Shown here piece by piece: positions 3,689 through 63,511 of a stretch of 64,000 nt of DNA. How positions within the stretch are numbered: position 1 is the first letter of the stretch; the number at the start of each line of letters is the position of its first letter. Under the pieces are notes generated by a model. It searched no databases and was not told the origin of the DNA. It was given only the letters and a program-made list of their open reading frames with translations. This DNA comes from a virus. The stretch is taken from positions 54,428 to 118,427 of the IMG/VR virus record IMGVR_UViG_3300010355_001758; one strand, given 5' to 3'. Both the position numbers and the translations under genes were made by a program.

Positions 3689-4249
3689 ATGAGTGACGGG
3701 ATCCGGGCTTGCGGTCGCCTGCGCATCTATCGGACCGGCGTGAACCGCCGTTTCACGGAGTGCCTCGTCGACACCCACAACCTGATCGTCGACGACGGAT
3801 TGTCGGCCATCAGCCGCCTCATCGGCGGAGGGTACGGCGTCCCGGTCGTCGGCGCCGGGGTGACGACCTACCCGCTGTCGGCCCTGTCCGGGGCGTCGGT
3901 TTCGACCATGCTCCTCGGCACCCGCGATGCCCTGCCGGCGCCGCTGCCGGGGGACGGGGATGCAGGACCCATCCCGACCGTGGACGTTCCCGCCGGGGGC
4001 GGGTTCCGCGGGCAGTTCACCGCCGTAGGCGGGACGTTGGCGATCTCCTACCCTACCCCCACCTCCGTGCGCTTCACCGCCTACGCCGGGACCGGGCAGT
4101 GGAACGACCCCAACCCGCCCATCACCGAGGAGATGCTGCTCACCGAGATGGGCACCGTCTTCGCCCGCGTCGTCCTGCCCATCCCCGTGAACACCACGTC
4201 GTCGTCCGGCCTGTCGTTCGTCCATGACATCATCCTGAGCCGAGCCTGA
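3689..4249 (+). CDS. Putative baseplate/tail-collar protein
   Basis: NLIVDDGL and ITEEMLL...FARV motifs; lies between baseplate and fibre genes; start re-chosen at ATG 3689. Confidence 0.5.
   Translation: MSDGIRACGRLRIYRTGVNRRFTECLVDTHNLIVDDGLSAISRLIGGGYGVPVVGAGVTTYPLSALSGASVSTMLLGTRDALPAPLPGDGDAGPIPTVDVPAGGGFRGQFTAVGGTLAISYPTPTSVRFTAYAGTGQWNDPNPPITEEMLLTEMGTVFARVVLPIPVNTTSSSGLSFVHDIILSRA
3740..3756 (+). repeat. Dispersed 17-bp quasi-palindrome
   Basis: GTGAACCGCCGTTTCAC, intragenic (VNRRFT). Confidence 0.9.
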
Positions 4250-4250
4250 T

Positions 4251-6449
4251 ATGCCCTCCCAGACACTGATCGCAGGCGTTCCGCAGCTCATCACCACCGG
4301 TACCTCCGATGCCGTCGGCGACCTGCCGGCGCCGGTGTGGCCCACGCTCGAGCGCATCGCCGTCATCGACCTCGTGGGGCCCAGCGCCGCCAACCGCCAG
4401 CACCGCTCCCTGCAGAAGCGCACCAGCGTCCTGGCCTTCGACACCAACCTGGCGGTCGCGGCGCTGAACGCCGTCACCGGTGCCACCGCCGTAGGGGCGG
4501 ACTACGCCAGGAAGCCGCACGCGAACGCCGATGTGCCGTTGACGGCCGGGGCGGCGCAGACGCAGGACGATCTCGAGCACTACCTCGCCCGCGACGGCAG
4601 CAGCATCATGTGGGGGCGCCTGAACCTCGGGCACACCCGGTCGCTGATGTACTCGACGGCGTTCGGTGGCGACGACTTCCACTGGACGCAGGGCCCCGGC
4701 AGCGCCGCCGTGGCGAACGCCGATGCCGACCTGGCGTGGGGCGTGAAGCGCCTGGCCGCGAACAGCTACCAGCTCTACGTGTGGTCCGGCGGCAGCCCCT
4801 ACCGCGTGCTGACCACCGAGGACTTCGGCGGCGGCGCCGGCGTGTTCCTGGCGTCCGATACCAACAACCCGCGCGTGGTTGGCGGCGTCGGCGGCGCCTC
4901 GCTTTACATCGAGGCGACCAACGCGACCCCGGGCACCGAGGCGACCCTCGGCACCCGCATCACCGGGCAGGACGCCTTCTCGTGGCGGCAGGCGCGCGAC
5001 GATACCGGCAAGCTGTCGCTGTACCGGGCCGAGGGCATCTCCGGCGTGAACGCGAAGCTGATGGAGGTCGACGCCTCAGGGTCGTACGCTTACGTGCGGA
5101 CCTCGCCGCTGTCTGTGTCGCCGAACCTGACCATCCACGGCATCGCCGTCGCCCATATCCCGCACGGGGCCGTGACCGGCTGGGGGGTGGACGACTTCAG
5201 CTACGAGGCGGTGCAGCTGCCCTACGCCGGCCGCCTGCGCGTGGCCTTCGGGGCGATCGAGTCGGTGCGGATGGCCAACGGCCAGCCCGCCCTGTCGAAC
5301 CCGGCTAACAACGCCACCGTGGCCGTCGACTCCCAGCTGTCCGTCGTCATGGACGCCGCCGGCGAGCCGGCGTTCGGTACCGCTCAGCCGCGTATCGGCT
5401 TCGAGCGTCGCGGCGTCAATAGCTGCGCCCTCTACTACGACGGCGTGAACGGCGGCACCCACCACCTCCGCGTGCGCGGTATGGACGGGTTCGACGACCG
5501 CCTGGCGTTCGTCTCCGAGATCCCCGGCGGAGGGTCCGGGTTGACCGTGCTCGGCGTCGCCGTGCCCGGGTCGCCCGTCAACGTCAACATCACCGCGGCC
5601 GGGTGGTACGCGTACCTGCTCGTCGGTGGCGGTGGAGGTGGTGGCGGTGGAGGCGGAGGTGGAAACGGCGGCAAGAATGGCGGAGGCGGCGGTGCCGGCG
5701 GCTCCGGCGGGCAGGTGCGTTACGGCATGATCTACATCCCGACCGCTTCCGCCGTGTTGACCCTGACGGCCGGTGCGGCCGGTATCGCCGGCGCCGCCGG
5801 CGGTGGGACCGGCAGCGGCGGCTCCGGTACGGCCGGAGGCGTCAGCACCATCACCGGGCTGGCCGGGTTCGAGGCTACGGCCGACGGCGGCACCTTCGGC
5901 TCCGGCGGCGCTCGTGACGCCAGCGGCGGTGGCGGCGGCACCTGCCAGGGCAATGGAGGCGATGGCGGCCGCGGCGGCTACTATTCTACCCCCACCGTCA
6001 GCAATACCCCCGCACAGGCCGGCGGCGGCGGCATGATCGACGCCGTCCTCAGCGGGACCGTGTCGTCCTTCGGCGCCGCAGGGCCGTATGTCGGAAGCCA
6101 CTGGGTGTACGGCGGGCCCGGCGGCGGCGGCGGCGCCGCAGCCGGGATCGTTACCCGGGCGCTGTACATCGACGGCACGCAGCGCGTCATGTACCCGGCC
6201 AATATCGGTCACGGCGGCGTCAGCCTGACCCGGCTGCTCGCCGCCGCGTCGCTGTCCACCGTGTGGGCCGGCGGCGCCGGTGGTCGTAACGGCTATGGCG
6301 GCACCAACCCGCAGCCCGGCGCAGCCGCGACCGGATACGGCTGCGGCGGGGGCGGCGGGGGCGGCGGAGACGGTGCCTCCGGCGGATACGTCGGCCAGGC
6401 CGGGGGTGCCGGAGCGCCCGGCGTCGTAGCACTCTTCAAGCTCTTCTGA
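4251..6449 (+). CDS. Tail fibre / receptor-binding protein with glycine-rich C-terminal domain
   Basis: LLVGGGGGGGG...GGGGGAGGSGG glycine-rich domain typical of phage fibre tips. Confidence 0.7.
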   Translation: MPSQTLIAGVPQLITTGTSDAVGDLPAPVWPTLERIAVIDLVGPSAANRQHRSLQKRTSVLAFDTNLAVAALNAVTGATAVGADYARKPHANADVPLTAGAAQTQDDLEHYLARDGSSIMWGRLNLGHTRSLMYSTAFGGDDFHWTQGPGSAAVANADADLAWGVKRLAANSYQLYVWSGGSPYRVLTTEDFGGGAGVFLASDTNNPRVVGGVGGASLYIEATNATPGTEATLGTRITGQDAFSWRQARDDTGKLSLYRAEGISGVNAKLMEVDASGSYAYVRTSPLSVSPNLTIHGIAVAHIPHGAVTGWGVDDFSYEAVQLPYAGRLRVAFGAIESVRMANGQPALSNPANNATVAVDSQLSVVMDAAGEPAFGTAQPRIGFERRGVNSCALYYDGVNGGTHHLRVRGMDGFDDRLAFVSEIPGGGSGLTVLGVAVPGSPVNVNITAAGWYAYLLVGGGGGGGGGGGGGNGGKNGGGGGAGGSGGQVRYGMIYIPTASAVLTLTAGAAGIAGAAGGGTGSGGSGTAGGVSTITGLAGFEATADGGTFGSGGARDASGGGGGTCQGNGGDGGRGGYYSTPTVSNTPAQAGGGGMIDAVLSGTVSSFGAAGPYVGSHWVYGGPGGGGGAAAGIVTRALYIDGTQRVMYPANIGHGGVSLTRLLAAASLSTVWAGGAGGRNGYGGTNPQPGAAATGYGCGGGGGGGGDGASGGYVGQAGGAGAPGVVALFKLF

Positions 6450-6455
6450 GGCCCC

Positions 6456-6866
6456 ATGCCCGTCACGCACGCCAACTCCCCTACCCGCGACGCCATGTGC
6501 AACGCCGTCGTCGGTCTCGTCGATCAGGGCAGCGCCCTGGCCTCCGGGCGCCTCCAGCTCTCCGTCGATAGCGGGTTCACCGATGTCGTGGTCAGCGTGC
6601 CGCTGCAGAACCCTGCGTTCGCGGTCGCCTCGGCAGGGTCCGGCACCTCGGCCCTGAACACCGGCGGTGGCCTGTCGGTCGTCTACTCCGGCGGGGTCAC
6701 CAAGACGGTGAACTACTTCCGCTTCACCGACCGCGACGGCGTGGAGGTCATGCGCGGCACCGTCAGCGGCCCCTCCGGCACCGGCGACATGAAGCTGGCC
6801 GACAACGTCATCCCCGACAACACCACCATCACCGTCACCGCGTTCGTGTACACGACCATCCCGTGA
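6456..6866 (+). CDS. Small virion structural protein (hypothetical)
   Basis: Beta-rich 136-aa ORF with GC-biased codons in the tail cluster. Confidence 0.55.
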   Translation: MPVTHANSPTRDAMCNAVVGLVDQGSALASGRLQLSVDSGFTDVVVSVPLQNPAFAVASAGSGTSALNTGGGLSVVYSGGVTKTVNYFRFTDRDGVEVMRGTVSGPSGTGDMKLADNVIPDNTTITVTAFVYTTIP

Positions 6867-6879
6867 ACCGCCGTTTCGC
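6863..6879 (+). repeat. Dispersed 17-bp quasi-palindrome
   Basis: GTGAACCGCCGTTTCGC; its TGA is the stop of 6456..6866. Confidence 0.85.
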
Positions 6880-6891
6880 GGGGTAGCCGCG

Positions 6892-8503: not shown

Positions 8504-8892
8504 GCCTACCCCCGCCCCTCGTAGCCGATGCGCGCTTCCCCAAGCAGTCCCCCGCCGGCATCGGCGTGGAGGCGATCGTCCTCAAGCCGCTGGCACAGCT
8601 GCCGGCCGACCCCGAGGAGGGGATGATTGCCCGGTTGGCGTCCGACGGGCTCGTGTACACGCGCCGAGGCGGGGTGTGGACGACCGGTACGGGCGTCGGG
8701 TCGACCCACGTGCACCACCAGGCTCTCGCCGCCGCGGTCTGGAGCATCTCGCACACGCTGGGGTACCGCCCCTCCGTGCACGCCATCGACACGACCGGCG
8801 AGCAGATCATCGGTGAGGTGACCTTTCCCGCGCTCAACCAGGTGCAAGTCGCTTTCCTGATCCCCGTCGCCGGGTACGCTTACCTCACCTGA
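8500..8892 (+). CDS. Small virion structural protein
   Basis: HHQALAAAVWSISHTLGYRPSV motif seen in phage structural proteins; GTGA overlap start. Confidence 0.55.
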   Translation: MSLPPPLVADARFPKQSPAGIGVEAIVLKPLAQLPADPEEGMIARLASDGLVYTRRGGVWTTGTGVGSTHVHHQALAAAVWSISHTLGYRPSVHAIDTTGEQIIGEVTFPALNQVQVAFLIPVAGYAYLT

Positions 8893-8905
8893 ACCGCCGT
8901 TTCAC
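8889..8905 (+). repeat. Dispersed 17-bp quasi-palindrome
   Basis: CTGAACCGCCGTTTCAC; supplies the TGA stop, followed by a GGAG RBS. Confidence 0.9.
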
Positions 8906-13540: not shown

Positions 13541-13571
13541 GGCCGGCGTGAACCGCCGTTTCACGCCGGCC
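13541..13571. repeat. 17-bp motif inside an extended inverted repeat
   Basis: GGCCGGCGTGAA-CCGCCGT-TTCACGCCGGCC, 12-bp perfect arms, intergenic. Confidence 0.9.
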
Positions 13572-17450: not shown

Positions 17451-17912
17451 GTGCGCGTCCTCTTCTGGAAAGGCCCCTGCGGATTCTTCGGCACGCTGGT
17501 GCGCATCCGCACCCGCAGCGCGTACATCCACAGCGAGCTGCTGTTCTCCGACGGTGCCCGGTTCCGCATCGCACCCGGCGAGGTGTCACGGTTTTACGTC
17601 CCCGCCGACGCCCCGCGGTGGGACGGCGCCGTGTGGGACTGCCTGGAGGTGGCCGGAGGCGACGAGGCGTTCGTCCGGAAGTGGTGCTTCGAGCAGTCCG
17701 GCACGAAGTACGACTGGCTGGGGCTGGCGCTGTGCCAGGTGCTGCCGTGGGGTCGCGAGCACCCGGATCGGTGGTTCTGCTCCGAGCAGTGCACGGCCGG
17801 GCTGCAGGCCGGCGGGTACCCCGCCGTCGCCGACTTGAAGCCGCACTATCAGTCGCCGGCCAAGTTGGCGGCTGCACTCGTCCATCGTGGCGCTACCTTC
17901 CAGCTGCCGTGA
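17451..17912 (+). CDS. Permuted papain-like NlpC/P60-superfamily protein
   Basis: YIHSELLF (His), KYDWLG and WFCSE (Cys) in permuted order. Confidence 0.7.
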   Translation: MRVLFWKGPCGFFGTLVRIRTRSAYIHSELLFSDGARFRIAPGEVSRFYVPADAPRWDGAVWDCLEVAGGDEAFVRKWCFEQSGTKYDWLGLALCQVLPWGREHPDRWFCSEQCTAGLQAGGYPAVADLKPHYQSPAKLAAALVHRGATFQLP

Positions 17913-17925
17913 ACCGCCGTTTCAG
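17909..17925 (+). repeat. Dispersed 17-bp quasi-palindrome
   Basis: GTGAACCGCCGTTTCAG; supplies the stop and runs into the AGGAG RBS. Confidence 0.9.
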
Positions 17926-20515: not shown

Positions 20516-20917
20516 ATGGCATCCAGCCTGACCTACCTCGGTGAGAAGTACGCGCTGTTCGGCGACGGCGCCTCCAACGGGTCCATCGCCCGCCTGGCCA
20601 CCCACCTGCGCCTCTACACCACCGCGCCCACCAAGGCCGGAGGCGCCGTCGAGGTCGTCGGTACCGGCTATGCCGCCATCGTGATCTCGACCGTGGACTG
20701 GACCTTCACCCCGTCCCCCGGCATCGGCAGCCCCATGCAGATCCGGCTCGCCAACAAGCTGTTCACCGCAGGTGGGTCCTGGTTGAACGTGTCCGGCGCC
20801 TACATCACCGACGTCGGCGGGAACGCCCTGGCGTGGTGGGAGCGGTCGGCCGGGGCGGTCACGCTGTCGAACGGCGATACCCTCACCGCCGACCAGCTGA
20901 CCATCCGCTTCCCGTGA
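20516..20917 (+). CDS. Minor tail structural protein (related to 6927..7532)
   Basis: HLRLYTTAP...EVVGTGYA motif parallels that gene; GGGAG RBS. Confidence 0.55.
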   Translation: MASSLTYLGEKYALFGDGASNGSIARLATHLRLYTTAPTKAGGAVEVVGTGYAAIVISTVDWTFTPSPGIGSPMQIRLANKLFTAGGSWLNVSGAYITDVGGNALAWWERSAGAVTLSNGDTLTADQLTIRFP

Positions 20918-20930
20918 ACCGCCGTTTCAG
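20914..20930 (+). repeat. Dispersed 17-bp quasi-palindrome
   Basis: GTGAACCGCCGTTTCAG; supplies the stop. Confidence 0.9.
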
Positions 20931-26311: not shown

Positions 26312-26328
26312 GTGAACCGCCGTTTCAG
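26312..26328 (+). repeat. Dispersed 17-bp quasi-palindrome
   Basis: GTGAACCGCCGTTTCAG, intergenic. Confidence 0.9.
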
Positions 26329-26473: not shown

Positions 26474-26490
26474 GTGAACCGCCGTTTCAG
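26474..26490 (+). repeat. Dispersed 17-bp quasi-palindrome
   Basis: GTGAACCGCCGTTTCAG, 5 nt upstream of a putative -35. Confidence 0.9.
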
Positions 26491-26955: not shown

Positions 26956-28453
26956 GGTAGACTGCAAGGCCGGGCTGTGCGATAAGCTGCTGGCCATCCC
27001 CGACCCCGCGTTGGCGTGGGACCGGGCCGTCCACCTGCGGCTCAGCGACGGGTTGAAGCACTTCTTCGACACCGACACGCGTCGGTACCCCGCCGGCCTG
27101 ACGCATCGCCTGGTGGCGCGCCTGACGAAGCGCGGACACGAGGTCGAGCTGCTGCGTGAACCGCCGTTCCAGTTCGAGGCCGTGGAGGTGGACTACCTGG
27201 TCGGGGTGAACCTGCGCGACTACCAGGTCGAGGCCGTCGATGCGGCGCTGACCCACGCCCGCGGCATCCTGTGGATGGCGACCAACTCCGGCAAGAGCGC
27301 CGTCATTGCCGTCGTGGCCGGAAAGCTCGTGCGGGAGGCGCGGAAGGCGGTCGTCGTGGTCGTGCCCAACGCCTACCTGCTCCACCAGACGTCGTCCGAC
27401 ATCTCCAGGTTGCTGGGTCCCGATGTGCGGGTCGGGGTGGCCGGGGACGGCAAGCGGGTGCTGAAGTGCGACGTCCTCGTCGGGACCTACCAGACGCTCA
27501 TGGCCGGGGCCCCGCGAGGCAGGCAGAGCCCAGAGGACCCAGAGCTGGCGGCGTGGCTGGCCCGGGCCGGGGCGGTCCTCGTCGACGAGGCGCACCACGC
27601 GGCCTCGGACGCCTATGAGCGCATCCTCCGCAGCTGCACCGTCGCCCACTACCGGCTCGGGTTCACCGGGTCGCTGGACAAGAGCGACAAGAGGGCCGCC
27701 GGCGAGCGCAAGGAGGGGTCGGACGTCTCCTCGCGCATGCACCGGTGGCGGGTGGAGGCGTGGCTGGGGCCGCTCCTGTACCGCGTGGACAACGAGTTCC
27801 TGATCTCCAACGGGTACAGCGCCGTCCCCAGGTTCTACATCGTGCGCGACCGACAGGCGTTCGGTCCCGTCGTCAAGACCCCGCGCCCGAACCCCAATGC
27901 GCGCGGGCGCGCCGCGCAGATCTACAACCATGTCTTCACGCTGGCGTGCATCCGCGATACGAAGTGGCACCGGACCGTCGTGGCCGTCGTGCGGCATCTC
28001 CTGTCCCTGGAGCGGCCGCCGTTCGTGTTCAGCCACTCCGTCGTGCTGTTGGACGCCCTGTCGGCGGCCATGACCGCCGGAGGGGTGCCCCACCGGGTGC
28101 TGCACGGCGACCACGAGACCGACGACCGCCGTCGCGTCGTCAAGGAGTTCGAGGCCCACGGGGACTTCGCCGTGCTGGCCTCCTCGATCTTCGACGAGGG
28201 TGCCTCGATCCCCGCCATCAAGTCCGTCGTGTTCGCCGGCGCCCGCAAGAGTCCCGTCGAGCTGCTCCAGAGGATCGGTCGCGGGGTGCGCCGCAAGGCC
28301 GGCGATAACTCCGTGATCGTCGTCGATTTCGATCCCGTGCATACCACCATGCTGCACGACCACTTCGAGGCGCGCCTTGCCTCCTACCGGGACGAAGGGT
28401 TCAAGATCCGTTATGTCGATGACATCCTCCAGATCCCCGGCGTCATCGTGTGA
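26915..28453 (+). CDS. SF2 DEAH helicase (UvsW-like)
   Basis: LRDYQ, MATNSGKS, DEAHH, TGS, QRIGRGVR motifs. Confidence 0.9.
   Translation: MAKIRVHVGVIDAEVDCKAGLCDKLLAIPDPALAWDRAVHLRLSDGLKHFFDTDTRRYPAGLTHRLVARLTKRGHEVELLREPPFQFEAVEVDYLVGVNLRDYQVEAVDAALTHARGILWMATNSGKSAVIAVVAGKLVREARKAVVVVVPNAYLLHQTSSDISRLLGPDVRVGVAGDGKRVLKCDVLVGTYQTLMAGAPRGRQSPEDPELAAWLARAGAVLVDEAHHAASDAYERILRSCTVAHYRLGFTGSLDKSDKRAAGERKEGSDVSSRMHRWRVEAWLGPLLYRVDNEFLISNGYSAVPRFYIVRDRQAFGPVVKTPRPNPNARGRAAQIYNHVFTLACIRDTKWHRTVVAVVRHLLSLERPPFVFSHSVVLLDALSAAMTAGGVPHRVLHGDHETDDRRRVVKEFEAHGDFAVLASSIFDEGASIPAIKSVVFAGARKSPVELLQRIGRGVRRKAGDNSVIVVDFDPVHTTMLHDHFEARLASYRDEGFKIRYVDDILQIPGVIV
27156..27172 (+). repeat. 17-bp motif variant
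   Basis: GTGAACCGCCGTTCCAG, intragenic (REPPFQ). Confidence 0.8.
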
Positions 28454-29228
28454 CGACGCCGCTCCCGGCTGTTGGGGCCGGTTCCGTGGAGACGATACCT
28501 GTGCCGCGTGCGTGTGGCGGCCGCGATGCCGGAGGTTCACCGCCGCCGTGAAACGGCGTTCCACCGTCCGCGAGGCGCTGGAAGCGGCCGCTGCGGATAC
28601 CGCCACCGTCTCCCGACGCGACTTCCCGCACGCCGCCTACCGGCTGTGGCGCCAGGCCGGCGGCGTGCCCCGCCCAGCGTGGACCCGGTCCCGCGCCCAC
28701 CTCGACGCGCTCGAGGTCGTTTACGCCGCCTGTACGGCCCAGCGCGCCGATCCTCTCCTGTACGTCCAGGCGCAGGTGGAGACGGTGGGGTTCCACGCCA
28801 TCCAGGCCGGGAGGAGGCTGCAGGCCGGCGCGCTGCGCGGGCCTAACGCCGACGAGAGGTTTGCCAGGTGGATGGCCCGGAAGAACGGGAAGCGCGCCTC
28901 GCTGACGCGGAACCGGTCCGACGAGGCGGAGAGGGAGCGCCGGGAGGCCGCCGCCTCCGCCTTCGGCGTCGCCTACCTCGCCGACGGTGCCGACCTGCGT
29001 GCCGCTGCCGAGGCGTCCGGCGTGGTTCTGGAGAACCTCTCGCCCAGGGAGCGTCTGACGGCCCTCGCCGCAGGCATGGATGCGCTGGTGCCCAACATGA
29101 GCAGCCGTGTCCTGGTGCCCGACCGGTGGACGTTCCCGGAGGCGCGGAGGTTCGTCCGAGAGGTCGCCGAGGCCGCAGACCGGGCCGTTGCGCCGGTGGG
29201 GGACGGCTCGTTAGGATCCTTCATATGA
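28377..29228 (+). CDS. Hypothetical protein with N-terminal Cys cluster (start uncertain)
   Basis: CWG...CAACVWRPRC; lies between two helicases; ATGA-coupled to the next gene. Confidence 0.5.
   Translation: MPPTGTKGSRSVMSMTSSRSPASSCDDAAPGCWGRFRGDDTCAACVWRPRCRRFTAAVKRRSTVREALEAAAADTATVSRRDFPHAAYRLWRQAGGVPRPAWTRSRAHLDALEVVYAACTAQRADPLLYVQAQVETVGFHAIQAGRRLQAGALRGPNADERFARWMARKNGKRASLTRNRSDEAERERREAAASAFGVAYLADGADLRAAAEASGVVLENLSPRERLTALAAGMDALVPNMSSRVLVPDRWTFPEARRFVREVAEAADRAVAPVGDGSLGSFI
28548..28564. repeat. 17-bp motif variant
   Basis: GTGAAACGGCGTTCCAC, intragenic. Confidence 0.8.
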
Positions 29229-37896: not shown

Positions 37897-37935
37897 GGCC
37901 CGTACGCGTGAACCGGCGGTCCACGCGTACGGGCC
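37897..37935. repeat. 17-bp motif variant inside a 14-bp-arm inverted repeat
   Basis: GGCCCGTACGCGTG-AACCGGCGGTC-CACGCGTACGGGCC between SSB and RecA. Confidence 0.9.
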
Positions 37936-37957: not shown

Positions 37958-39124
37958 ATGGCCGACAAGAAGCCCCGCTACCGCGTCATCGAGGAGCCCG
38001 AGCAGCCCGACCCCGAGGACCTGCCGCCGTTCAGCGGCATCGTGGTCGAGAAGCTCAATCCCAAGTTCGCCAAGCTCGGAGGTTCCGTGGCGCGTGCCGA
38101 CGCCATGGAGTACCTGCACGAGCCCAAGACCTTCGTCAAGACCGGCATCTATCCGCTGGACGAGGTGCTCAGCGGCGGCAACGGCATCCCGTGCGGGCGC
38201 TTCATCGAGGTGTTCTCCCCCGAGAGCGTCGGCAAGTCTGCGCTGTGCGAGTTCCTCGTCGGTCGCTTCAAGCAGCTGCGCGGGACCAACCACTACATCG
38301 ATACCGAGCAGACCATCTCCTACGACCACCTGGCGTGCTACGGAGTGCAGAAGGGCGACTTCATCATGCCCGACCTCCCCGACCTGGAGTCGGTGTGGGA
38401 CTACGTCGTCGGGGTCGTGAAGGCGCTCAAGGAGCGCAACGAGGAGAGGCAGGCGAAGAAGTTGAGGCCGGAGGCGCCCAACCTCATCGTCCTGGACTCC
38501 CTGGCAGCCACCCCTTCCCGCGCCGAGCTGGACGAGGACGAGCACGACGATAGCCACGTCGGCCTGCAGGCCCGGTCCAATGCCAAGGGCGTGCGCAAGA
38601 CCCTGCGGTCGTTCAGCGCGTCCGATGTCGTGTTCCTGTGCGTGAACCAGATCCGCGACAAGATCGGTTCGACCGGGTACGGTCCCAAGACCGACACGCC
38701 CGGAGGCAGGGCGCTGAAGTTCGCCTACTCCATCCGTCTCAAGCTGGCGAAGATCGAGACGCTCAAGAAGGGCGACATCCCCGTGGGTCACGTGATCGAG
38801 GTCACCACCGTCAAGAACAAGCACGCCCCGATGGGGCAGAAGTGCCAGATCGTTCTGTCCTACCTGCGCGGCATCGACGTGAACTGGTCCAACTTCCTCT
38901 GGTTCCAGAAGCACCGCATCATCGTCGCCAAGGGTAGTGCCGGCTACGCGTTCCACGGCAGCAGCGAACGGTTCCGTAGGTCCGACTTCGGGGACTTCTG
39001 CTCCCGCAACAAGGAGCTGGTGGCCGAGGCGGCCAAGAAGTGCATCCAGAAGGACAGGGCGACCTTCCTCGCCGAGGCCGGCGACGCCCGGGATGAAGCC
39101 GTCGACGATGACGAGGCGGAGTGA
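37958..39124 (+). CDS. recA: RecA/UvsX-like recombinase
   Basis: GIPCGRFIEVFSPESVGKS, VLDSLAA, NQIRDKIG, TPGGRALKF, VKNK. Confidence 0.93.
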   Translation: MADKKPRYRVIEEPEQPDPEDLPPFSGIVVEKLNPKFAKLGGSVARADAMEYLHEPKTFVKTGIYPLDEVLSGGNGIPCGRFIEVFSPESVGKSALCEFLVGRFKQLRGTNHYIDTEQTISYDHLACYGVQKGDFIMPDLPDLESVWDYVVGVVKALKERNEERQAKKLRPEAPNLIVLDSLAATPSRAELDEDEHDDSHVGLQARSNAKGVRKTLRSFSASDVVFLCVNQIRDKIGSTGYGPKTDTPGGRALKFAYSIRLKLAKIETLKKGDIPVGHVIEVTTVKNKHAPMGQKCQIVLSYLRGIDVNWSNFLWFQKHRIIVAKGSAGYAFHGSSERFRRSDFGDFCSRNKELVAEAAKKCIQKDRATFLAEAGDARDEAVDDDEAE

Positions 39125-39137
39125 ACCGCCGTTTCAG
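39121..39137 (+). repeat. Dispersed 17-bp quasi-palindrome
   Basis: GTGAACCGCCGTTTCAG; supplies the recA stop, upstream of the ParB-like gene. Confidence 0.9.
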
Positions 39138-39227
39138 GGGATTGGCGCCCGTCCGGCCGATCCCGTAGAGTCAGGTCCATAACCCAAGCGCCGGCCGTCG
39201 GCCGGACAGTACAAGGAAGACGCCACC

Positions 39228-40352
39228 ATGGCCAAGACCCCCGATGCCGCTCCCGCGGCTCCCAAGATCCCGCGCGGCGGGCTCAACCTCCAGAACCTGC
39301 CCATGGACAAGGTGTCCATCAAGAAGGGCTTCAACCCCCGCTCCGACCTGGGCGACCTGGGTGAGCTGAAGCGCTCGCTCACCGAGCAGGGCATGCAGGT
39401 GCCCGTGATCGTGTGCCCGACCAAGGACGGCGCCGACACCTACTACATCGTCGCCGGCCACAGGCGCTTCACCGTGTGGCAGGAGATGGGCAAGACGACC
39501 ATCCCCGCCAGCGTGCGCAACGACCTGACCATCGCGAGCCCCGAGGCCTTCGCGCTGGCCGTGTCCGAGAACAGCGAGGACGTGCGCTCTAGCCTCAGCC
39601 CGCTCGACCAGGCCAACGCCTTCAAGAAGATGCTGGAGCAGGCCGGGGGCGACGGGAACGAGGCGAAGGTCGGCAAGATGGCCGGCTACACCGTGACCCA
39701 CGTGCGCCGCACCCTCAAGCTGTTGGTCGTGCCCAAGGCGATCAAGGAGCGCCTGCAGAAGGGCGAGATCAGCACCCGCGCCGCCGTGGCGGTGGCCGAC
39801 GTGCCCGACGACATCCGCGATCGCGTGGTCCAGCGCGTCCAGGCCGGCACCACCGAGGGCGAGGTCGCCCGCCTGGTGAACGAGATCCGCCGCGAGGCGC
39901 GTTCCGCCGGGCAGACCGCCCCCGCCGCCGGGCGCGGGCAGTCCCAGGCGCAGGCCGGCAGCCGCCACAACGTGCCGGTCGGCACGACCGGCGGCACCTT
40001 CGTCAGCCCCAAGGGCATGCGCGAGGTGCGCAAGATGCTGGAGCACGTGGCCGCCGATGCGCTGAACGCCCGCGAGGATCTCAAGACGGCCGAGGATGAT
40101 TCCGACGAGGCCAAGGAGGCGGCGACGCAGTATCTGACCAAGGCCAACCAGCTCGTGGCCCTGCTGTGGCAGGTCGGCGGGGTGGACAAGATGGACATCA
40201 ACACCAAGGACTTCAAGCGCGCCCTGGACGAGATCGCCGAGCGCCTGGAGGCCCGGATGGCGAAGGACAAGAAGGCCGATGCGCCGCCCGCCGCGGCTGC
40301 GACCGCGGCGGCCTCCGCGTCCGGCAGGGACGACGACGGCGAGGAGGAGTGA
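39228..40352 (+). CDS. ParB/Spo0J-family protein (CTPase domain + HTH)
   Basis: FNPR, LKRSL..QG..VPVIV, IVAGHRRF, EN..R..LSPLDQA, HTH KVGKMAGYTVTHVRRTL. Confidence 0.88.
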   Translation: MAKTPDAAPAAPKIPRGGLNLQNLPMDKVSIKKGFNPRSDLGDLGELKRSLTEQGMQVPVIVCPTKDGADTYYIVAGHRRFTVWQEMGKTTIPASVRNDLTIASPEAFALAVSENSEDVRSSLSPLDQANAFKKMLEQAGGDGNEAKVGKMAGYTVTHVRRTLKLLVVPKAIKERLQKGEISTRAAVAVADVPDDIRDRVVQRVQAGTTEGEVARLVNEIRREARSAGQTAPAAGRGQSQAQAGSRHNVPVGTTGGTFVSPKGMREVRKMLEHVAADALNAREDLKTAEDDSDEAKEAATQYLTKANQLVALLWQVGGVDKMDINTKDFKRALDEIAERLEARMAKDKKADAPPAAAATAAASASGRDDDGEEE

Positions 40353-40360
40353 CGCTGGCG

Positions 40361-40391
40361 GGCCCCCGTGAAACGGCGTTTCACGGGGGCC
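40361..40391. repeat. Perfect 31-bp palindrome containing the motif; possible terminator
   Basis: GGCCCCCGTGAAACG-G-CGTTTCACGGGGGCC followed by TTT, 8 nt after the ParB-like stop. Confidence 0.9.
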
Positions 40392-40422
40392 TTTCACCTC
40401 TATCCGTTATCGTGGAGGCGTC

Positions 40423-43477: not shown

Positions 43478-44668
43478 GTGTCCAAGGTCGAGCGCGTCCC
43501 CGATGCCGTACTCCGGCTGCCCACCAAGCAGTGCTTCGTCATCCGTAAGGAAGGCAAGTGGGTGCTGTCGGACAAAGCCGGGGACGTGTTCGACCTTGAG
43601 CCCGGGGAGTACCTGGAGGTCGAGCTGCCCGTGGCCGACTACATCGATCACGACTGGGAGAACGGGAAGTCGGTTCAGAAGCGCAAGCCGGTCATGCTGA
43701 CCTATCCGGTCGAGGAGGCGCTGGCGCGGCTGGAGACCATCCCCGGCGTGACCCACGCCGTCGATCGGTCTCAGCACATGTACGACCACCATGCCCCGCC
43801 GGAGCTGCACTCCTCGGCAGGGGTGTCCGACCGGTTCCGTCGGTATGCCGCCATCGGCGGCGAGGTGGCGACCGCCTACGATACGCCGTACTGGCACGAT
43901 CCGCACCCCGCGCCCGAGGACGCCCCTCGCATCGCCGAGGTGGTGGCGAAGGTCGGCGGGAGGCTCGGGTGGCAGCGGCCGTACCATCCCACCGACAGCG
44001 GGTACAGTAAGATCGCCGACGCCCTGGCCCCCTTCGGGATAATCATCGACACTGGGACCGGGTCGTTCGTGCACGATCCCGTCCTCGCGGAGAAGCGCGC
44101 CAAGGGGCGCGCCCGCCGCAAGCAGTACGTCGCTGGCTCCGAGGACCGCGCCCGCCGGCAGAGGGAGGAGGCGCAGCGTGCCGACGAGGAGGAGCTGAAG
44201 ACCATCCATTACGCTGACCTGGAGTTCTTCGACAGGGCGCTCGCGAGCGCCCTGGCTTCCGGAGTCGTCGCCGCCCTGCTGGCGTCGGAGTCCGATCCGC
44301 GCGTGTGCGCTTACGGTGAGGGCGCAGGCAGGGTGCGTGAGTGCTACGACGCGTGGGTGCTGTTCGGCAGCGACCCCGTCGCCTTCGGCCAGCGGCCCGT
44401 ATTCATCGGGCGCAACAACGCCGCCGCCGAGAAGGTCGTCGCTACGTTCGTCGCGCGCCTCGGCGACCACTACCGGCGTGTCGCCAACCGCGCCCGCCGG
44501 GCGAAGGTGCCGAAGCCCAAGCCGCGCTTCGACCTGCGGTACTGGCAGCACGTCGGAGCCGTCGTCTCCGAGTTCTACGCCGATGCCGCCGCCTACACGG
44601 CAGCCGAGGAGGCCCGCGCCGTACGGGAGGCCGAGGAGGAGGCGAAGGCTCAGCAGGGTGTCGCGTGA
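43478..44668 (+). CDS. Hypothetical protein
   Basis: 396-aa ORF with coding-like codon bias. Confidence 0.6.
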   Translation: MSKVERVPDAVLRLPTKQCFVIRKEGKWVLSDKAGDVFDLEPGEYLEVELPVADYIDHDWENGKSVQKRKPVMLTYPVEEALARLETIPGVTHAVDRSQHMYDHHAPPELHSSAGVSDRFRRYAAIGGEVATAYDTPYWHDPHPAPEDAPRIAEVVAKVGGRLGWQRPYHPTDSGYSKIADALAPFGIIIDTGTGSFVHDPVLAEKRAKGRARRKQYVAGSEDRARRQREEAQRADEEELKTIHYADLEFFDRALASALASGVVAALLASESDPRVCAYGEGAGRVRECYDAWVLFGSDPVAFGQRPVFIGRNNAAAEKVVATFVARLGDHYRRVANRARRAKVPKPKPRFDLRYWQHVGAVVSEFYADAAAYTAAEEARAVREAEEEAKAQQGVA

Positions 44669-44681
44669 ACCGCCGTTTCAC
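44665..44681 (+). repeat. Dispersed 17-bp quasi-palindrome
   Basis: GTGAACCGCCGTTTCAC; supplies the stop, upstream of the second ParB-like gene. Confidence 0.9.
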
Positions 44682-47179: not shown

Positions 47180-47484
47180 CCACCCAACCCGTATCCGACG
47201 TCGTCCGCGTGAACCTCAACGACGCCGTGCGCGACCTCGCCGTCAAGGACGGGGTGACCGACTCGTCCGAGCTGCAGAAGGTCGTGGGCGTGAAGCGCTT
47301 CGACCAGTATGCCGCCCAGGTGCGCTCCTACTATGCCGGCTACGACGTGGGGTATGCCGAGGGCCTCCTCCTGAACGGGCCCGCTCTCGGCCGGTACGGT
47401 CTGCGCATGGCGCTGCTCGGGGCGGTAGCCGGGGCCGCCCTGGCGCTCTCCGCCTGGGTGTTCGTCGTCCCCTACTTCCGCTGA
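47176..47484 (+). CDS. Small membrane protein
   Basis: C-terminal hydrophobic helix; ATGA-coupled. Confidence 0.55.
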   Translation: MTTQPVSDVVRVNLNDAVRDLAVKDGVTDSSELQKVVGVKRFDQYAAQVRSYYAGYDVGYAEGLLLNGPALGRYGLRMALLGAVAGAALALSAWVFVVPYFR

Positions 47485-47497
47485 AACGCCGTTTCAC
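47481..47497 (+). repeat. 17-bp motif variant
   Basis: CTGAAACGCCGTTTCAC spans from the stop to the next ATG. Confidence 0.9.
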
Positions 47498-49392: not shown

Positions 49393-49875
49393 ATGCTTGT
49401 CGCCGGGATCGACCCAGGAGTGTCCCCCGCCGTCGCCTTCGTGGGCGACGGGGCGGCGTTCGCCGAGCGCATCCCGCAGGTCGGGCACCTCTTCGACGAG
49501 AAGGCCCTGCGCAAGGTCCTGAGGCTCCACCGCCCGGCCTGCGCCGTCGTCGAGCTGGTGGGTCCCATGGCCGGGCAGGGGCTGTCCTCCACGGCGCACT
49601 TCATGGCCGCCTGGGGCCTCATCCGCGGCATCCTGTGCGGGATGGGCATCCGGTACGACCTCGTCACCCCGCAGGTGTGGAAGCGGGACGTACTACCGCC
49701 GTGCGAGGAGTCGGACCCCGGCAAGCGCAAGGCGGCGCAGAAGGCAGCCGCAGTCGCCCTGGTGGCGAGGAAGTACCCCGGCATCGTCCTCGTGCGACCC
49801 AGGTGCCGCACGCCTGACCACAACCTGGCCGAGGCTGCGTGCCTCGCCCACTGGAAGCTCCATGGCCAAGACTGA
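49393..49875 (+). CDS. RuvC-like Holliday junction resolvase
   Basis: AGIDPG, VVE, VTPQVWK, NLAEAACLA. Confidence 0.8.
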   Translation: MLVAGIDPGVSPAVAFVGDGAAFAERIPQVGHLFDEKALRKVLRLHRPACAVVELVGPMAGQGLSSTAHFMAAWGLIRGILCGMGIRYDLVTPQVWKRDVLPPCEESDPGKRKAAQKAAAVALVARKYPGIVLVRPRCRTPDHNLAEAACLAHWKLHGQD

Positions 49876-50533
49876 ACCGCCGTTTCACGCGCCGCCGCCC
49901 GACGATGAGGACAAGCGAATGGAGTCGGCGCTCACGCCGGCCGACGAGGAGATCTGCCAGAACATCGTCGTGTTCGGCGTGGAGTACCTGCGCGTCGCCA
50001 AGGGGTGGACCGGGTACGCGGCCGAGAAGTTCCTCAAGCGCGTCCAGGTCCGGAAGCACATCGAGACCCTGCAGAAGCAGTACACCGACCGCACCGGCAT
50101 CCAGGAGCGCACGCAGTTCTTCGCGCAGCTGAAGATCAACACCATGGTCCCGGCGGCGATCAACACCTTGGCCAAGGCGCTGCGCGGGCCGTACACCGAC
50201 CCCAATACCGGCAACGTCGTACCCCCGCCGGCGCGCGGGCAGTTCGACGCCGCCCTGGAGGTGCTGAACCGCGCCAACATCCAGGGCAGCAAGTGGGGCG
50301 GCAACGATTCCGTGCCCGCGATCGACGCCCGCACGGTCAACCTGGCGCTCGGCAGTGCGTCCGATCCGCTCAGCGGCCTGACCGGCACCGGGCGCGAGAA
50401 GCTGCGCAGTCTGCTCTCCGCCGTGGCCTCCCGGGCGCGCTCGGTGGCCACCGCCGACGCCGAAGTGCGCAAGCGCGTGCGCGATGTCGCCGCCGCCGCC
50501 GAGACCGACGACGATTCGGAGCGCGACCGGTGA
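49862..50533 (+). CDS. Putative terminase small subunit
   Basis: Coupled immediately upstream of the large terminase; helical. Confidence 0.5.
   Translation: MAKTEPPFHAPPPDDEDKRMESALTPADEEICQNIVVFGVEYLRVAKGWTGYAAEKFLKRVQVRKHIETLQKQYTDRTGIQERTQFFAQLKINTMVPAAINTLAKALRGPYTDPNTGNVVPPPARGQFDAALEVLNRANIQGSKWGGNDSVPAIDARTVNLALGSASDPLSGLTGTGREKLRSLLSAVASRARSVATADAEVRKRVRDVAAAAETDDDSERDR
49872..49888 (+). repeat. Dispersed 17-bp quasi-palindrome
   Basis: CTGAACCGCCGTTTCAC; supplies the resolvase stop and codes TEPPFH in the next gene. Confidence 0.9.
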
Positions 50534-52479
50534 TCGATCGAGCGGAGCTGCGCAAGGTCCTAGGCGACCTACCAGAGCTGGAGACGCTGACCGAGGCCGA
50601 GCTCGTCGTATTCCAGCAGTGCCTCGACGAGATGGTCGAGTCGGGGTCGTCGCCCCTGGCGGCCTCGCTGGTCCTGACGGACTACAAGTGGGAGCCCGTC
50701 AGCATGGCGCAGTTCCTCAGCGACCCGTATTACGCCGGCGAGCTGACCCACGACCTGTTCCCCGCCTGCCGGGGACTGCTGATCGAGGCGTTCGATAACG
50801 GTCGCCGGCCGACCGAGCTGGTGCTGGCCGGGGCGACCGGCTGGGGCAAGACCACCTGCCTGTCGCTGTGCTGCATCTACCTCGCCTACCGCCTGACCTG
50901 CCTGCGCGACCCTCACGACTACTACGGGCTGATGAAGGGCGCCCCGATCGTGCTGGGCCTGTACTCCATCAACCTCGACCAGGCGTTCGACACCGTCTAC
51001 GGCAAGGTGCTGAACTGGGTCGATGCCATCCCGTACTTCTCCGAGAAGTCCCCGCGGGTGAAGCGCATCAGCAGCAAGATCAAGTTCGCCCAGTCGCCCG
51101 TCGAGATCATCGCCGGGTCGAAGGAGCTGCACTCGATCGGCAAGGACCTGTTCTTCGCCGGTATCGACGAGGCCAACTTCATGATGGCTGCCAACGGCGA
51201 TGTGGACGAGGGCGTGGCGTCCGCCATCTACACCTCGGTCAGCCGCCGCCTCAAGTCGCGCTTCATGACCAGCACCGGTGAGCCCGCCGGCATGGCCGTG
51301 ATCTCCTCTTCCAAGAGGACCAAGGCCAGCTTCGTCGAGAACCACCTGCGCGATAACCAGGCCGACGTCGCCTCCGGCCTCATCAAGGTGGCCGCCTTCA
51401 CGCAGTGGGAGGTGCGCGACCCGCGCCGGTTCACCCGCCCGAAGTTCCGTGTCCAGCTCGGCGATCGCGTGCACCCCGCCCGCGTGCTCCTGGACGGCGA
51501 GGACCCCCGGCCAGGCGCCGAGGTGATGACGGTCCCCGGCGAGTACCGGCGCGACTTCGACCAGGACATCGACAAGGCGCTGCGCGACATCGCCGGGGTG
51601 GCGTCCGAGAGCATGGTGCCGCTCCTCCACGATAAGTCGTGCCTGGCGCGTTGCGCCGCCCTGGCCACCCATGTGCACCCGTTCACGCGCGAGGTCATCA
51701 ACATCTCGACCGACGACGACATCGGGATCGACGCCTACCTGCGCCCCGAGCTCCTTTTCAAGATCGTCCGTAGCTCGTACCGGTTGCGCCTGAATCCCGA
51801 GGCCGCCAGGTATATCCACGTCGACATCGGCCTGACCGGCGACTCGATGGGTATCGCCATGTCGCACATCTCCGGGTTCAAGACCGTGAAGCGCCCGCGC
51901 AAGGACGGCACCTGGTACGAGGACAAGGCCCCGGTGCACGTGGTCGACTTCCTGCTCAAGGTGCGGCCGCCGCAGATCGGCGAGATCGACCTCGGGAAGG
52001 CGCGCGCCTTCCTCATCGCCCTGCGCGACTACGGGGTGCCGATCTGGCGGGTCAGCTACGACGGCTTCCAGTCTCGCGACAGCGTGCAGATCATGCGCAA
52101 GCTGGGGTTCGACTCCGTGGTGTATTCCGTGGACCGCACCGACGAGGCCTACCTGTCGCTGAAGCAGGCGTTGGTTGAGGAGCGCATGATCGTGTACCAC
52201 TACCCCGAGTTCGTGCGCGAGATCAGCGAGCTGGAGCGCGACCTGGACCGCGGGAAGGTGGACCACCCGCGGGTGTCCTCGTCCACCGGCCAGCCCGGGT
52301 CGAAGGACGTCAGCGATGCCCTGGCCGGGTCCATGTGGAACGCCTTGTCCGACAAGCGTCTGGCGTTCCCCAGCCTGGCGCGCACCTCGGCTCCCGGGGT
52401 GGACAACGTGGGGGCGAAGGTCGCGGTCCCCGGCGGCACGATGCTGTGGTCTGACCTCGAGAAGGAAGTACGCTCGTGA
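50530..52479 (+). CDS. terL: Terminase large subunit
   Basis: Walker A GATGWGKT, Walker B GIDEANF, ISSS, nuclease HVDIG, YDGFQS, KVDHP...SKDVSDA. Confidence 0.88.
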   Translation: MIDRAELRKVLGDLPELETLTEAELVVFQQCLDEMVESGSSPLAASLVLTDYKWEPVSMAQFLSDPYYAGELTHDLFPACRGLLIEAFDNGRRPTELVLAGATGWGKTTCLSLCCIYLAYRLTCLRDPHDYYGLMKGAPIVLGLYSINLDQAFDTVYGKVLNWVDAIPYFSEKSPRVKRISSKIKFAQSPVEIIAGSKELHSIGKDLFFAGIDEANFMMAANGDVDEGVASAIYTSVSRRLKSRFMTSTGEPAGMAVISSSKRTKASFVENHLRDNQADVASGLIKVAAFTQWEVRDPRRFTRPKFRVQLGDRVHPARVLLDGEDPRPGAEVMTVPGEYRRDFDQDIDKALRDIAGVASESMVPLLHDKSCLARCAALATHVHPFTREVINISTDDDIGIDAYLRPELLFKIVRSSYRLRLNPEAARYIHVDIGLTGDSMGIAMSHISGFKTVKRPRKDGTWYEDKAPVHVVDFLLKVRPPQIGEIDLGKARAFLIALRDYGVPIWRVSYDGFQSRDSVQIMRKLGFDSVVYSVDRTDEAYLSLKQALVEERMIVYHYPEFVREISELERDLDRGKVDHPRVSSSTGQPGSKDVSDALAGSMWNALSDKRLAFPSLARTSAPGVDNVGAKVAVPGGTMLWSDLEKEVRS

Positions 52480-52492
52480 ACCGCCGTTTCAC
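52476..52492 (+). repeat. Dispersed 17-bp quasi-palindrome
   Basis: GTGAACCGCCGTTTCAC; supplies the terL stop, then AGGAG RBS. Confidence 0.9.
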
Positions 52493-54928: not shown

Positions 54929-55095
54929 CCGATTCCCGTGAACCGCCGGTTCAGGTGAAGCCTCGCCCCGGCCTGCTGGTCGAGGACCGGAACGCCGCCG
55001 TGCGTACCGAGCCCGACGGCCGACAGACCATCGTGAAGGTGCCCAGCCGTCCGGCTGAGGCCGACCGCCAGGGCGTTTCCGAGTCGAAGATTTGA
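54925..55095 (+). CDS. Small hypothetical protein (56 aa, not in ORF track)
   Basis: GGAGG RBS, ATGA overlap, MTDSREPPVQVKPRPG... Confidence 0.45.
   Translation: MTDSREPPVQVKPRPGLLVEDRNAAVRTEPDGRQTIVKVPSRPAEADRQGVSESKI
54938..54954 (+). repeat. 17-bp motif variant
   Basis: GTGAACCGCCGGTTCAG. Confidence 0.8.
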
Positions 55096-58522: not shown

Positions 58523-59096
58523 CCTCCGTGAACCGCCGTTTCAGATCGGTCTGGTGAAGGCGGAGGACCCGCTGAACCGAGGGTCGCGTAGCGACTACGC
58601 CCAGTACCTCCGTCGGTTTTACTACCCGCAGGTTGCGAACCCGGTCCACCTGTTCGAGGCCAAGTACAACTGGGACTTCTTCCAGCCGTACGTGGCGAAG
58701 GACGAGGGCCCGCTCAGCGTGTTCCGGCGCAACGCCGCGTTGCCGCGCGGCATGACCGGCGGCCTGGTCTACTGCCACTGGGAGCGGCGCTTCCGCGACG
58801 GCCCGAAGTCCGTGCCGTTCTCCTGCTACGCCGTTGAGGGCATCTTCCCCGGCGAGGCGGTGATGGCCGAGTACGGGTGCGCGTCGGCCAGCATCTTCAT
58901 GGACGTGGCGCGCCGAGGCTGTGACGGGGCCTGGTTCGACCACGTGAAGCTGATCGACTGGGCCGACGGTAGGACCCTGTGCCTGCTGGGTTCGGGCGGT
59001 GGCTCGATCGCCACGCCGTGGGTCACCCTCCTCGACACCGCGTTGTTGGAGGTGCACATGGCCAAGGCCGAGAGGCTGGAAACGAGGCCGCTGTGA
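58515..59096 (+). CDS. Hypothetical protein
   Basis: Overlapping ORF in operon. Confidence 0.55.
   Translation: MPDLREPPFQIGLVKAEDPLNRGSRSDYAQYLRRFYYPQVANPVHLFEAKYNWDFFQPYVAKDEGPLSVFRRNAALPRGMTGGLVYCHWERRFRDGPKSVPFSCYAVEGIFPGEAVMAEYGCASASIFMDVARRGCDGAWFDHVKLIDWADGRTLCLLGSGGGSIATPWVTLLDTALLEVHMAKAERLETRPL
58528..58544 (+). repeat. Dispersed 17-bp quasi-palindrome
   Basis: GTGAACCGCCGTTTCAG in N-terminal codons (REPPFQ). Confidence 0.9.
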
Positions 59097-61692: not shown

Positions 61693-61916
61693 CCGTTCGC
61701 CACCTCGGAGAGAGCGCCGCTATCCGTGCCCTCATAGCCAAGCCCGACCAGTGCCCGTATTGCGGCAGCACCGATACCGAGGGCGAGGGCGTGGACGTGC
61801 AGGACGACGCCCGACGAGCCGAGCAGGAGGTCGGGTGCAACGCCTGCGGCGCCTCCTGGTACCTGCGCTGGCAGCTCAACGGTGCCGCCATCATCAACCC
61901 CCCGTCTACGGAGTAG
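61689..61916 (+). CDS. Zinc-ribbon protein
   Basis: CPYCGS...CNACG. Confidence 0.55.
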   Translation: MTVRHLGESAAIRALIAKPDQCPYCGSTDTEGEGVDVQDDARRAEQEVGCNACGASWYLRWQLNGAAIINPPSTE

Positions 61917-61918
61917 CC

Positions 61919-62772: not shown

Positions 62773-62774
62773 CC

Positions 62775-62803
62775 TTGTGGGGTTCCGGGGAACCCGGGAG
62801 GAT
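62775..62803 (+). promoter_or_regulatory. Conserved promoter-like element, copy 3
   Basis: TTGTGG-GGTTCCGGGGAACCCGG-GAGGAT. Confidence 0.55.
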
Positions 62804-62829
62804 GGAAGCCTACCCACGAGGAATCCCCC

Positions 62830-63498
62830 ATGACCCGCGTACTCAAGTCCCTCATCCCCGAGCGGGGCGGCACCGTCATGCTGCCCGTCTGCGCCAAGCC
62901 CGTCAGCGTCGGGTTCCAGCGCGAGCGTCGATCGGCGCCCATTGTCGGCGTTCCCAGCGTCGACCCCTCCTGGCCGGTCGACCAGGTCGATCCCGGTCAC
63001 GACCCGTCGGATCTCGCCCGCTTCGTCGTGAGGATGACCGATATGCGCACCGGCACGCAGGTTCAGCATGTCGCCGTCGCGCCCCTCGGTTTCGACGAGG
63101 TCGATGCCGACGGCGTCTTCAACGAGGCGGCGTCGTACTACGGCTCGCGCGGGTACTGCGACTTCCAGGTGACCCCGTGTGCGCCGAGCGCCCCCGATGA
63201 CCACGGCATCGCCCCGCCCGCCGCCAACCTCGTGCCCGTGCTGTGGTGGGAGGAGCCCTGCCTCGACTCCGTGGACGGCGACGCCGAGGGCATGGAGTTC
63301 GTCGGTGTCGACGAGAACGACTATGCGTCCCGCTGGCCCAAGGCCTGCGTCGAGTTGTTCGTCGTCCCGACCGGGGAGCCCGCCCCGCGGAACGCCGTCT
63401 TCATGGGCACCCTGCAGCGCCCCCAGCGCCAGGACCCGTCCAGGGACGCCGTGTTCCATATCTATATCCTGCGCACCAGCCTGCTCCGGTTCGCCTGA
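62830..63498 (+). CDS. Hypothetical protein
   Basis: GAGG RBS; 222 aa. Confidence 0.55.
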   Translation: MTRVLKSLIPERGGTVMLPVCAKPVSVGFQRERRSAPIVGVPSVDPSWPVDQVDPGHDPSDLARFVVRMTDMRTGTQVQHVAVAPLGFDEVDADGVFNEAASYYGSRGYCDFQVTPCAPSAPDDHGIAPPAANLVPVLWWEEPCLDSVDGDAEGMEFVGVDENDYASRWPKACVELFVVPTGEPAPRNAVFMGTLQRPQRQDPSRDAVFHIYILRTSLLRFA

Positions 63499-63511
63499 AC
63501 CGTCGTTCCAC
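63495..63511 (+). repeat. 17-bp motif variant
   Basis: CTGAACCGTCGTTCCAC; supplies the stop, then GGAG RBS. Confidence 0.8.

Follow-up and report, generated by a model that had tools for sequence, protein, structure and literature searches.

The ParB-family protein KorB of the IncP-alpha plasmid RK2, which joins a CTPase fold to a helix-turn-helix (HTH) domain, acts from dispersed, odd-centred palindromes (OB), 12 of which lie in about 60 kb, some beside promoters; from these it represses at a distance, and their positions are conserved between RK2 and R751 (available text of PMC13768133; see also PMC11790492). Cluster O mycobacteriophages such as Corndog carry 17-bp dyad repeats of 7-3-7 geometry; the available part of PMC4351075 left their function unassigned, named gp90 among three candidate binders, doubted that gp90 has a role in genome stability and described recombination between the repeats. 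The same text portrays the stoperators of Cluster A phages as asymmetric and oriented with transcription. Noc, the orphan ParB-type protein of Firmicutes that pairs with NBS sites, has a changed DNA specificity, carries an amphipathic helix at its N-terminus and works on the chromosome of its host (PMC7333895, PMC7383237), and orphan phage ParB proteins are widespread and largely uncharacterised (PMC12704722; all three as far as their accessible text goes). Here we describe a lattice of 17-bp palindromes in a myophage genome, G000, analysed from a window of 64,000 bp that comprises bases 54,428–118,427 of the 150,229-bp virus record IMGVR_UViG_3300010355_001758 (68% GC; completeness rating 100%). 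We judge, with a probability of about 0.6, that the palindromes serve to load P0001, a partner-less protein of ParB type that the phage itself encodes and that would coat the whole genome. In the literature searched, which lay largely outside subscription journals, neither a regularly spaced lattice of ParB sites in a phage nor a mechanism for one was found described. Coordinates refer to the window unless the genome or a locus is named.

The initial annotation had listed 23 copies in the window, 13 of them with an exact 14-mer on the + strand, and both counts held: all 23 starts carry the motif, and the 14-mer occurs 13 times, always on the + strand. Beyond these, only two weak sites (34373 and 34973) lie within 4 mismatches of the consensus. 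A scan of the full genome with a position weight matrix (PWM; >15 bits) returned 52 sites with the consensus GTGAACCGCCGTTTCAS, against 0–1 in each of five Markov-4 simulated genomes. The mean gap is 2.9 kb with a coefficient of variation (CV) of 0.45 and a largest gap of 5,398 bp, whereas sites placed at random gave a mean CV of 0.97, with the widest gap close to 13 kb; the real layout was matched in evenness by 0 of 20,000 random and 0 of 20,000 gene-end placements. The window alone is also even (CV 0.50, P=0.0008) and contains the largest gap. Every base lies at most 2.7 kb from a site and 95% of bases at most 2 kb, and the lattice passes through the structural, replication and accessory parts of the genome as well as its tRNA regions.

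Called stop codons are overlapped by 18 of the 52 sites, and 12 sites fall within called genes, ten in codon phase 1 and two in phase 0 that may be start miscalls. The phase-1 sites use codons that are rare in this genome (CGT 7.5%, GAA 5.5%, GTT 2.8%, TTT 1.7%), and nine of the ten lie below the 5% background quantile of codon usage. A bias towards the + strand, together with the recombination described for Cluster O repeats, would fit palindromes that arose by chance, from a protein motif or by repeat expansion, or that serve as recombination sites. Against this stand the site count and even spacing, the rare codons, the independent motifs of the same layout in relatives (see below) and the lack of any match to the tyrosine integrase family PF00589, the sole integrase family searched, in all five near-complete genomes. 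Count, evenness, relatives' motifs and rare codons largely refute an artefactual or recombinational origin, to which we give almost no weight; the lattice is a real, selected, lineage-wide feature.

Genome-wide, 43 sites are oriented + and 9 −, the ten phase-1 intragenic sites divide into 4 + and 6 −, and just two sites (genome 3628 and 4050) are flanked on both sides by minus-strand genes. On the + strand, positions 6 and 12 read C/T at 39 sites, C/G at 5, A/T, which gives the symmetric 'parS-like' core, at 4 and A/G at 4. Avoidance of CCGG or other palindromes was rejected as the source of this asymmetry, as the 4-mers are not depleted (observed/expected 0.85–1.24). The initial annotation had presented the motif by its symmetric form and had read it as swapped parS half-sites. 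The symmetric form is not the usual one, and the swapped reading fails: the core is symmetric at 4 of the 52 sites, P0001 lacks the parS-reading residues, and the motifs of relatives (for example, AYTGACA-YSR-TGTCART and WTCAAMG-AWT-CKTTGAW) bear no resemblance to parS. A search for parS with up to 2 mismatches found none in the whole genome. Chromosomal ParABS shares the layout of ParB_N plus HTH with P0001, and one half-site resembles parS over 7 bp; that system has ParA, parS and clustering near the origin, whereas G000 has evenly dispersed sites and neither parS nor a ParA match.

Although three ParB-family genes had been counted, the genome holds five genes with a ParB_N domain, and the three in the window are not equal candidates. 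Only P0001, encoded by a parB-like gene (374 aa; 39228–40352, + strand), matches HTH_ParB and passes TIGR00180 among the five (81 bits against a cut-off of 58); it scores 40 bits with PF02195 and 34 bits, against 22.6, with PF17762. Its N-terminal ParB fold contains Box I, a GxxR Box II and Box III, and the motifs FNPR, GHRR and SEN of this CTPase fold align to solved ParBs; residues N36, P37, R38, G77, R79, R80, E114 and N115 are invariant in nine of nine close homologues. The central HTH is modelled as helical with a pLDDT of about 80–88 over residues 125–200, the N-terminus is predicted to be disordered, and the C-terminus has three predicted helices and no match to PF23552. In PDB and Foldseek comparisons, P0001 comes closest to ParB, Spo0J, Noc and KorB. 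Because the pTM of the P0001 model is 0.33, we restrict structural statements to the level of domains. P0002 (44763–46154, + strand), the second ParB-family gene, combines ParB_N with a weak HTH and is kept only in close relatives; it is a secondary candidate or cofactor and was rejected as the main binder, since neither G005 nor any of the 17 larger records compared contains it. P0003 (55711–56367, + strand), the third, has ParB_N only and, with no HTH match, was likewise rejected as the main binder and is unlikely to bind here. A C5 cytosine methyltransferase gene is immediately preceded by two tandem genes with ParB_N only (L004:6114–9173), which probably belong to a DNA-modification module unconnected with the sites.

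P0001 is with good probability the binder of the palindromes, and its action as a CTP clamp is also probable, if somewhat less so. P0001 keeps the CTP-site motifs, but V156, R184 and V187 stand at the positions of Caulobacter R173, G201 and R204, and canonical ParB reads the 16-bp parS through R173 and G201. Noc shares with P0001 the arginine at the position equivalent to G201, whereas P0001 lacks Q173, K179 and K184 and has the N-terminus predicted to be disordered. With 66 bits against a Noc family cut-off of 315, P0001 falls outside the Noc family. Canonical ParB recruits SMC and ParA (PMC7333895, in its available part), and the ParB-like domain layout of P0001 would allow the sites to act as many scattered centromeres that tag the whole genome for partition by ParA or SMC of the host. 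Searches for ParA (AAA_31, CbiA) gave no match in complete G000, nor in the relatives G027, G015 and G033, with one sub-threshold CbiA hit in G039. P0001 has IPRGGL and no copy of the ParA-binding motif (L/F/I)G[KR]G(L/F/I) as defined in the accessible text of PMC12704722, and 52 regularly spaced sites are more than partition requires; we consider such a role very unlikely.

The gene for P0001 lies within an ssb-recA-exonuclease replication cluster, with a site on either side. The upstream site (39121–39137, +) overlaps the recA stop codon and lies 90 bp upstream of the parB ATG; 4 bp past it begins a sigma70-type promoter-like sequence for parB, TTGGCG-N18-TAGAGT (39142–39171, + strand), which also stands beside a site in L093 and L095. 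The downstream site (40368–40384, −) starts 15 bp past the parB stop, nested in a GC-flanked inverted repeat that forms a potential hairpin and is followed by a T-rich run (40359–40392), a terminator-like arrangement. We tested 32 orthologue groups, each present in at least four distant relatives, for a site at most 200 bp upstream. The parB group ranked first, with a site in 7 of 10 distant relatives (P=2.3e-4; about 0.007 corrected), ahead of a runner-up at 4 of 7 (P=0.016). The other site positions are not conserved in distant relatives, so that the sole deeply kept position is the one upstream of parB. The site there abuts or overlaps a −35/−10 pair in G000, L093, L095, G015, G012 and G013, and 39121–39137 is likely an autoregulatory operator of parB.

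Close relatives of G000 are represented by overlapping fragments (L093/L094; G001–G004) of about two phages with mostly 45–80% protein identity, which cover 20 of the G000 sites. Read by eye, 17 of these 20 keep their position, in some cases with the arms flipped; where gene content differs, one lies on the other side of a small open reading frame (ORF), two have no counterpart and two additional sites are present, the first within a 1.6-kb insertion and the second ahead of a dUTPase gene. The largest gap in these fragments is 5.6 kb. No close cultured relative was found in phage or plasmid collections, and single-protein scans of IMG/VR for relatives of parB and of the capsid gave no match. 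For distant relatives, a terminase profile led to 80 IMG/VR loci, and 40 of their records were searched; 13 of the 40 contain a P0001 orthologue, and G005 is a fourteenth.

A dyad search against a Markov background, followed by PWM refinement, recovered the G000 motif in the close relatives without prior input of it and found other odd-centred 15–17-mers in most orthologue-bearing records. Five records each have a lattice that is significantly even compared with chance (P<=0.001): complete G027, with 58 sites over 150 kb (CV 0.52; largest gap 5.5 kb), G017 (52 over 95 kb), G015 (39 over 143 kb), G013 (27 over 98 kb) and G033 (17 over 156 kb, or about one per 9 kb; CV 0.40). The fragments G005, G012 and G023 contain 6, 4 and 14 sites; a separate best-14-mer count in G005 was not significant (real 6, null 4–6). 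The G000 matrix, with its 52 sites at home, finds 0–1 in each of 17 other records, and in G027, G017, G013, G025 and G022 the P0001 orthologue is the only ParB_N gene. A very dense lattice was seen in G016 (L287), with 19 sites in 12 kb or about one per 0.6 kb. Most orthologue bearers have palindromes, but G039 has no detectable motif and some lattices occur without the orthologue. Genome-wide loading of a ParB clamp, as opposed to a single centromere, is the portion of the initial proposal that the comparative evidence makes probable.

Several observations weigh against P0001 loading as the general explanation. Evenness is not significant in G025 (23 sites) and G022 (9), G021 has 5 and G018 3–5 weak sites, and complete G039 encodes an intact P0001 orthologue with no motif detectable by the dyad and PWM searches. 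Even-centred 14-mer lattices are present in G043, G041, G031 and the cultured phage DLP5, all without a P0001 orthologue, and the two terminase-linked ParB proteins scanned, those of G043 and DLP5, match ParB_N only. Five cultured phages have a tblastn match to P0001, and a strong dispersed palindrome was found in one, SSP002, and not in Bowser, AH2, Maja or VarioGold. Across 11 genomes, motif similarity correlates with terminase identity (r=0.63, p=0.004) more than with similarity of the recognition helix (r=0.37, p=0.044) or of the CTPase domain (r=0.29, p=0.13), and the relatives are not phylogenetically independent. Because the motif tracks the terminase more than the HTH, the covariation is mostly shared ancestry and does not identify the binder; HTH-motif coevolution was rejected as proof, having no support beyond ancestry. 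Moreover, the + strand bias of the non-genic sites is left unaccounted for, and the nucleotide specificity of ParB proteins is not predictable from sequence (PMC12704722, accessible text).

Part of this evidence would suit a different binder: the sites would then be operators or roadblocks, of stoperator or LexA type, for another phage protein or a regulator of the host, with ParB as a bystander. The lattices without a P0001 orthologue, the motif's adherence to phylogeny, the stop-codon overlap at 18 sites and the many G000 genes without a family match all point in that direction. At the sensitivity of tblastn, however, no other annotated HTH protein is common to the motif-bearing relatives, deep conservation of a site position is confined to the one upstream of parB, and a repressor leaves even spacing through genes unaccounted for. 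Stoperators resemble the G000 sites in being many, genome-wide and often at gene junctions, but the G000 sites are dyads, occur in both orientations within genes and flip between relatives. LexA sites have the spacing GAAC-N4-GTTC, whereas the G000 sites have N5, which counts against a LexA-like binder. Overall, we regard another binder as rather improbable.

The main rival concerns purpose and keeps P0001 as the binder: as a KorB-like global repressor, its clamps would slide to every promoter and hold the phage as a quiet episome, either a plasmid-like prophage or a pseudolysogen. The site beside the parB promoter, the action of KorB at a distance, the lack of a tyrosine integrase and the description of lattice-bearing DLP5 as a phagemid (PMC7326821) are in keeping with silencing. 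So are promoter-like sequences at a minority of sites in G015 (9 of 39) and G013 (6 of 27), counts in which there is some circularity, as the half-site looks like a −35 box, and which also weigh against our preferred reading; a strict promoter match lies near just 2 of the 52 G000 sites. Set against silencing are the location of parB in the replication cluster, the missing ParA match and the statement in the available text of PMC13768133 that sliding alone does not serve repression well. Nor did Pfam reveal a KorA/TrbA-type clamp-locking partner among the 174 proteins scanned, and distant relatives do not retain sites at given genes, in contrast to the conserved OB positions. Silencing as the principal purpose appears unlikely, though it ranks above the other rivals.

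The comparison with KorB/OB is the closest for mechanism. G000 likewise has a CTPase-HTH protein of the ParB family and dispersed odd-centred palindromes, some of them at promoter-like sequences; it differs in having 52 statistically even sites about 2.9 kb apart on a phage replicon with T4-like modules, in a lattice that is reshuffled between distant relatives except before parB, and in a site sequence unlike OB (PMC13768133, available part). By analogy, the G000 lattice may work like KorB/OB, but it lies outside that system, with no match to an IncC (ParA) partner, another site and positions that are not conserved. It is probably a new variant of ParB-family site architecture.

By analogy with ParB and KorB biochemistry (available text of PMC13768133 and PMC12704722), a P0001 dimer would bind a palindrome, close on CTP, leave the site and diffuse over kilobases until hydrolysis opens the clamp. 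With sites recurring every 3 kb and gaps of at most about 5.5 kb, the stretches covered by sliding clamps would run together until the whole genome is coated. The site before parB would repress the gene's own promoter and so keep the amount of clamp constant. Over long times the positions vary freely while gap length does not, from which we take coverage to be what is selected; selection would act on gap length (a maximum of about 5.5 kb in G000 and two relatives) and not on particular promoters. Because parB lies in the replication cluster and ParA is lacking, we tentatively favour, at slightly less than even odds, a phage nucleoid that compacts and organises the phage's chromosomes within the infected cell, repression of the KorB type at a minority of promoters being a side role.

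A second case may exist in Cluster O. Like G000, Corndog has repeats of 7-3-7 geometry in more than 30 genome-wide copies and no integrase or ParA; about a third of its repeats lie within genes, as do some G000 sites. The Cluster O motif differs in sequence from that of G000, and common ancestry of the two was not indicated. Corndog has 37 sites, uneven overall (CV 0.93) and even only in the left 48 kb (CV 0.51). Its gp90 (L476:14425–15933) has ParB_N, in which the motifs GQRR and EN are present, and after it an HTH-like segment, and aligns to the P0001 family from the CTPase fold into the HTH (hhalign 91%, E 1e-6; 23% identity over 120 columns), which makes it a candidate binder of the Cluster O repeats. 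It is conceivable, again a little short of even odds, that a widespread and undescribed phage chromosome-organising system combines an orphan ParB CTP clamp with a self-maintaining lattice, selected for spacing and not for position, for full coverage without ParA in a nucleoid that would compact, individualise or shield the phage DNA, its palindrome re-tuned per lineage and the Cluster O 17-mers an independent case bound by gp90. If so, the CTP clamp known from bacterial chromosome segregation would be used by phages in a third way, for full-genome coverage set by a maximum gap instead of one centromere or a few operators; orphan phage ParB proteins would gain a testable function, and the Cluster O repeats, without explanation since 2015, a named binder. 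Corndog, DLP5 and SSP002 offer cultured models, and a dozen natural ParB-palindrome pairs would serve the study of changes in HTH specificity.

The lattices of the two other cultured phages are as follows. Stenotrophomonas phage DLP5 (MG189906; L475/L496–L498) has 35 evenly spaced 14-mers of the type TGCAATYRATTGCA (CV 0.46, P<0.001). The same TGCAATYRATTGCA class occurs in G043, G041 and the terminase loci L303, L324, L325, L327, L333, L352 and L355; the string 'palindrom' does not occur in the DLP3 paper. Vibrio phage SSP002 (L482–L485) has 29 dispersed palindromes of the TTTACT-N3-AGTAAA type (CV 0.68), one of them at 65452, about 230 bp before the annotated parB.

The remaining sites of the window are on the + strand unless marked. 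Stop codons are overlapped at 6863–6879, 8889–8905, 17909–17925, 20914–20930, 44665–44681 (upstream of P0002), 47481–47497, 49872–49888 and 63495–63511; the last lies before a PARP-domain gene and has no counterpart in relatives. Intergenic sites are found at 13548–13564, at 26312–26328 and 26474–26490, which form a pair, between ssb and recA at 37908–37924 (−) and between the terminase and portal genes at 52476–52492. Within genes in phase 1 are 27156–27172 (codon 81 of an SF2 helicase) and 30940–30956 (−; codon 104 of the primase), and 35190–35206 (−) lies within the DNA polymerase gene at codon 644 and is identical in one relative. The site at 33264–33280, at the DNA polymerase start, is retained in one relative, 28548–28564 (−) is at a called gene start and 54938–54954 near the start of a short ORF. 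The site at 58528–58544 stands one small ORF earlier in relatives, and a further site is at 3740–3756. Three site pairs 141–162 bp apart surround short non-coding stretches (26312/26474; genome 16518/16659 and 125264/125414) and may mark promoters or an origin.

G000 is a myophage with T4-like capsid, portal, sheath and baseplate genes, and its replication and repair genes include DNA polymerase A, RecA, a gp32-like SSB and a Mre11/Rad50-like pair. The DNA polymerase A (33260–36349) has an N-terminal UDG-like domain, and its gene is split by a 1.3-kb insertion at codon 674 in a close relative (L093:1195–2474). The contig starts with a 23-bp perfect inverted repeat (L001:1–58), and because its last 100 bases repeat the start of the gene at 416, the closure point of G000 is not at base 1. 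The genome encodes 34 tRNAs and one tmRNA; the set at L004:9739–19791 and L005:7316–7929 includes one called SeC and one Ile(TAT) as well as the tmRNA, and the lattice spacing runs on through this region. The PARP-domain gene (63523 onward) and a TROVE-domain gene (L004:12095–13744) are both accessory.

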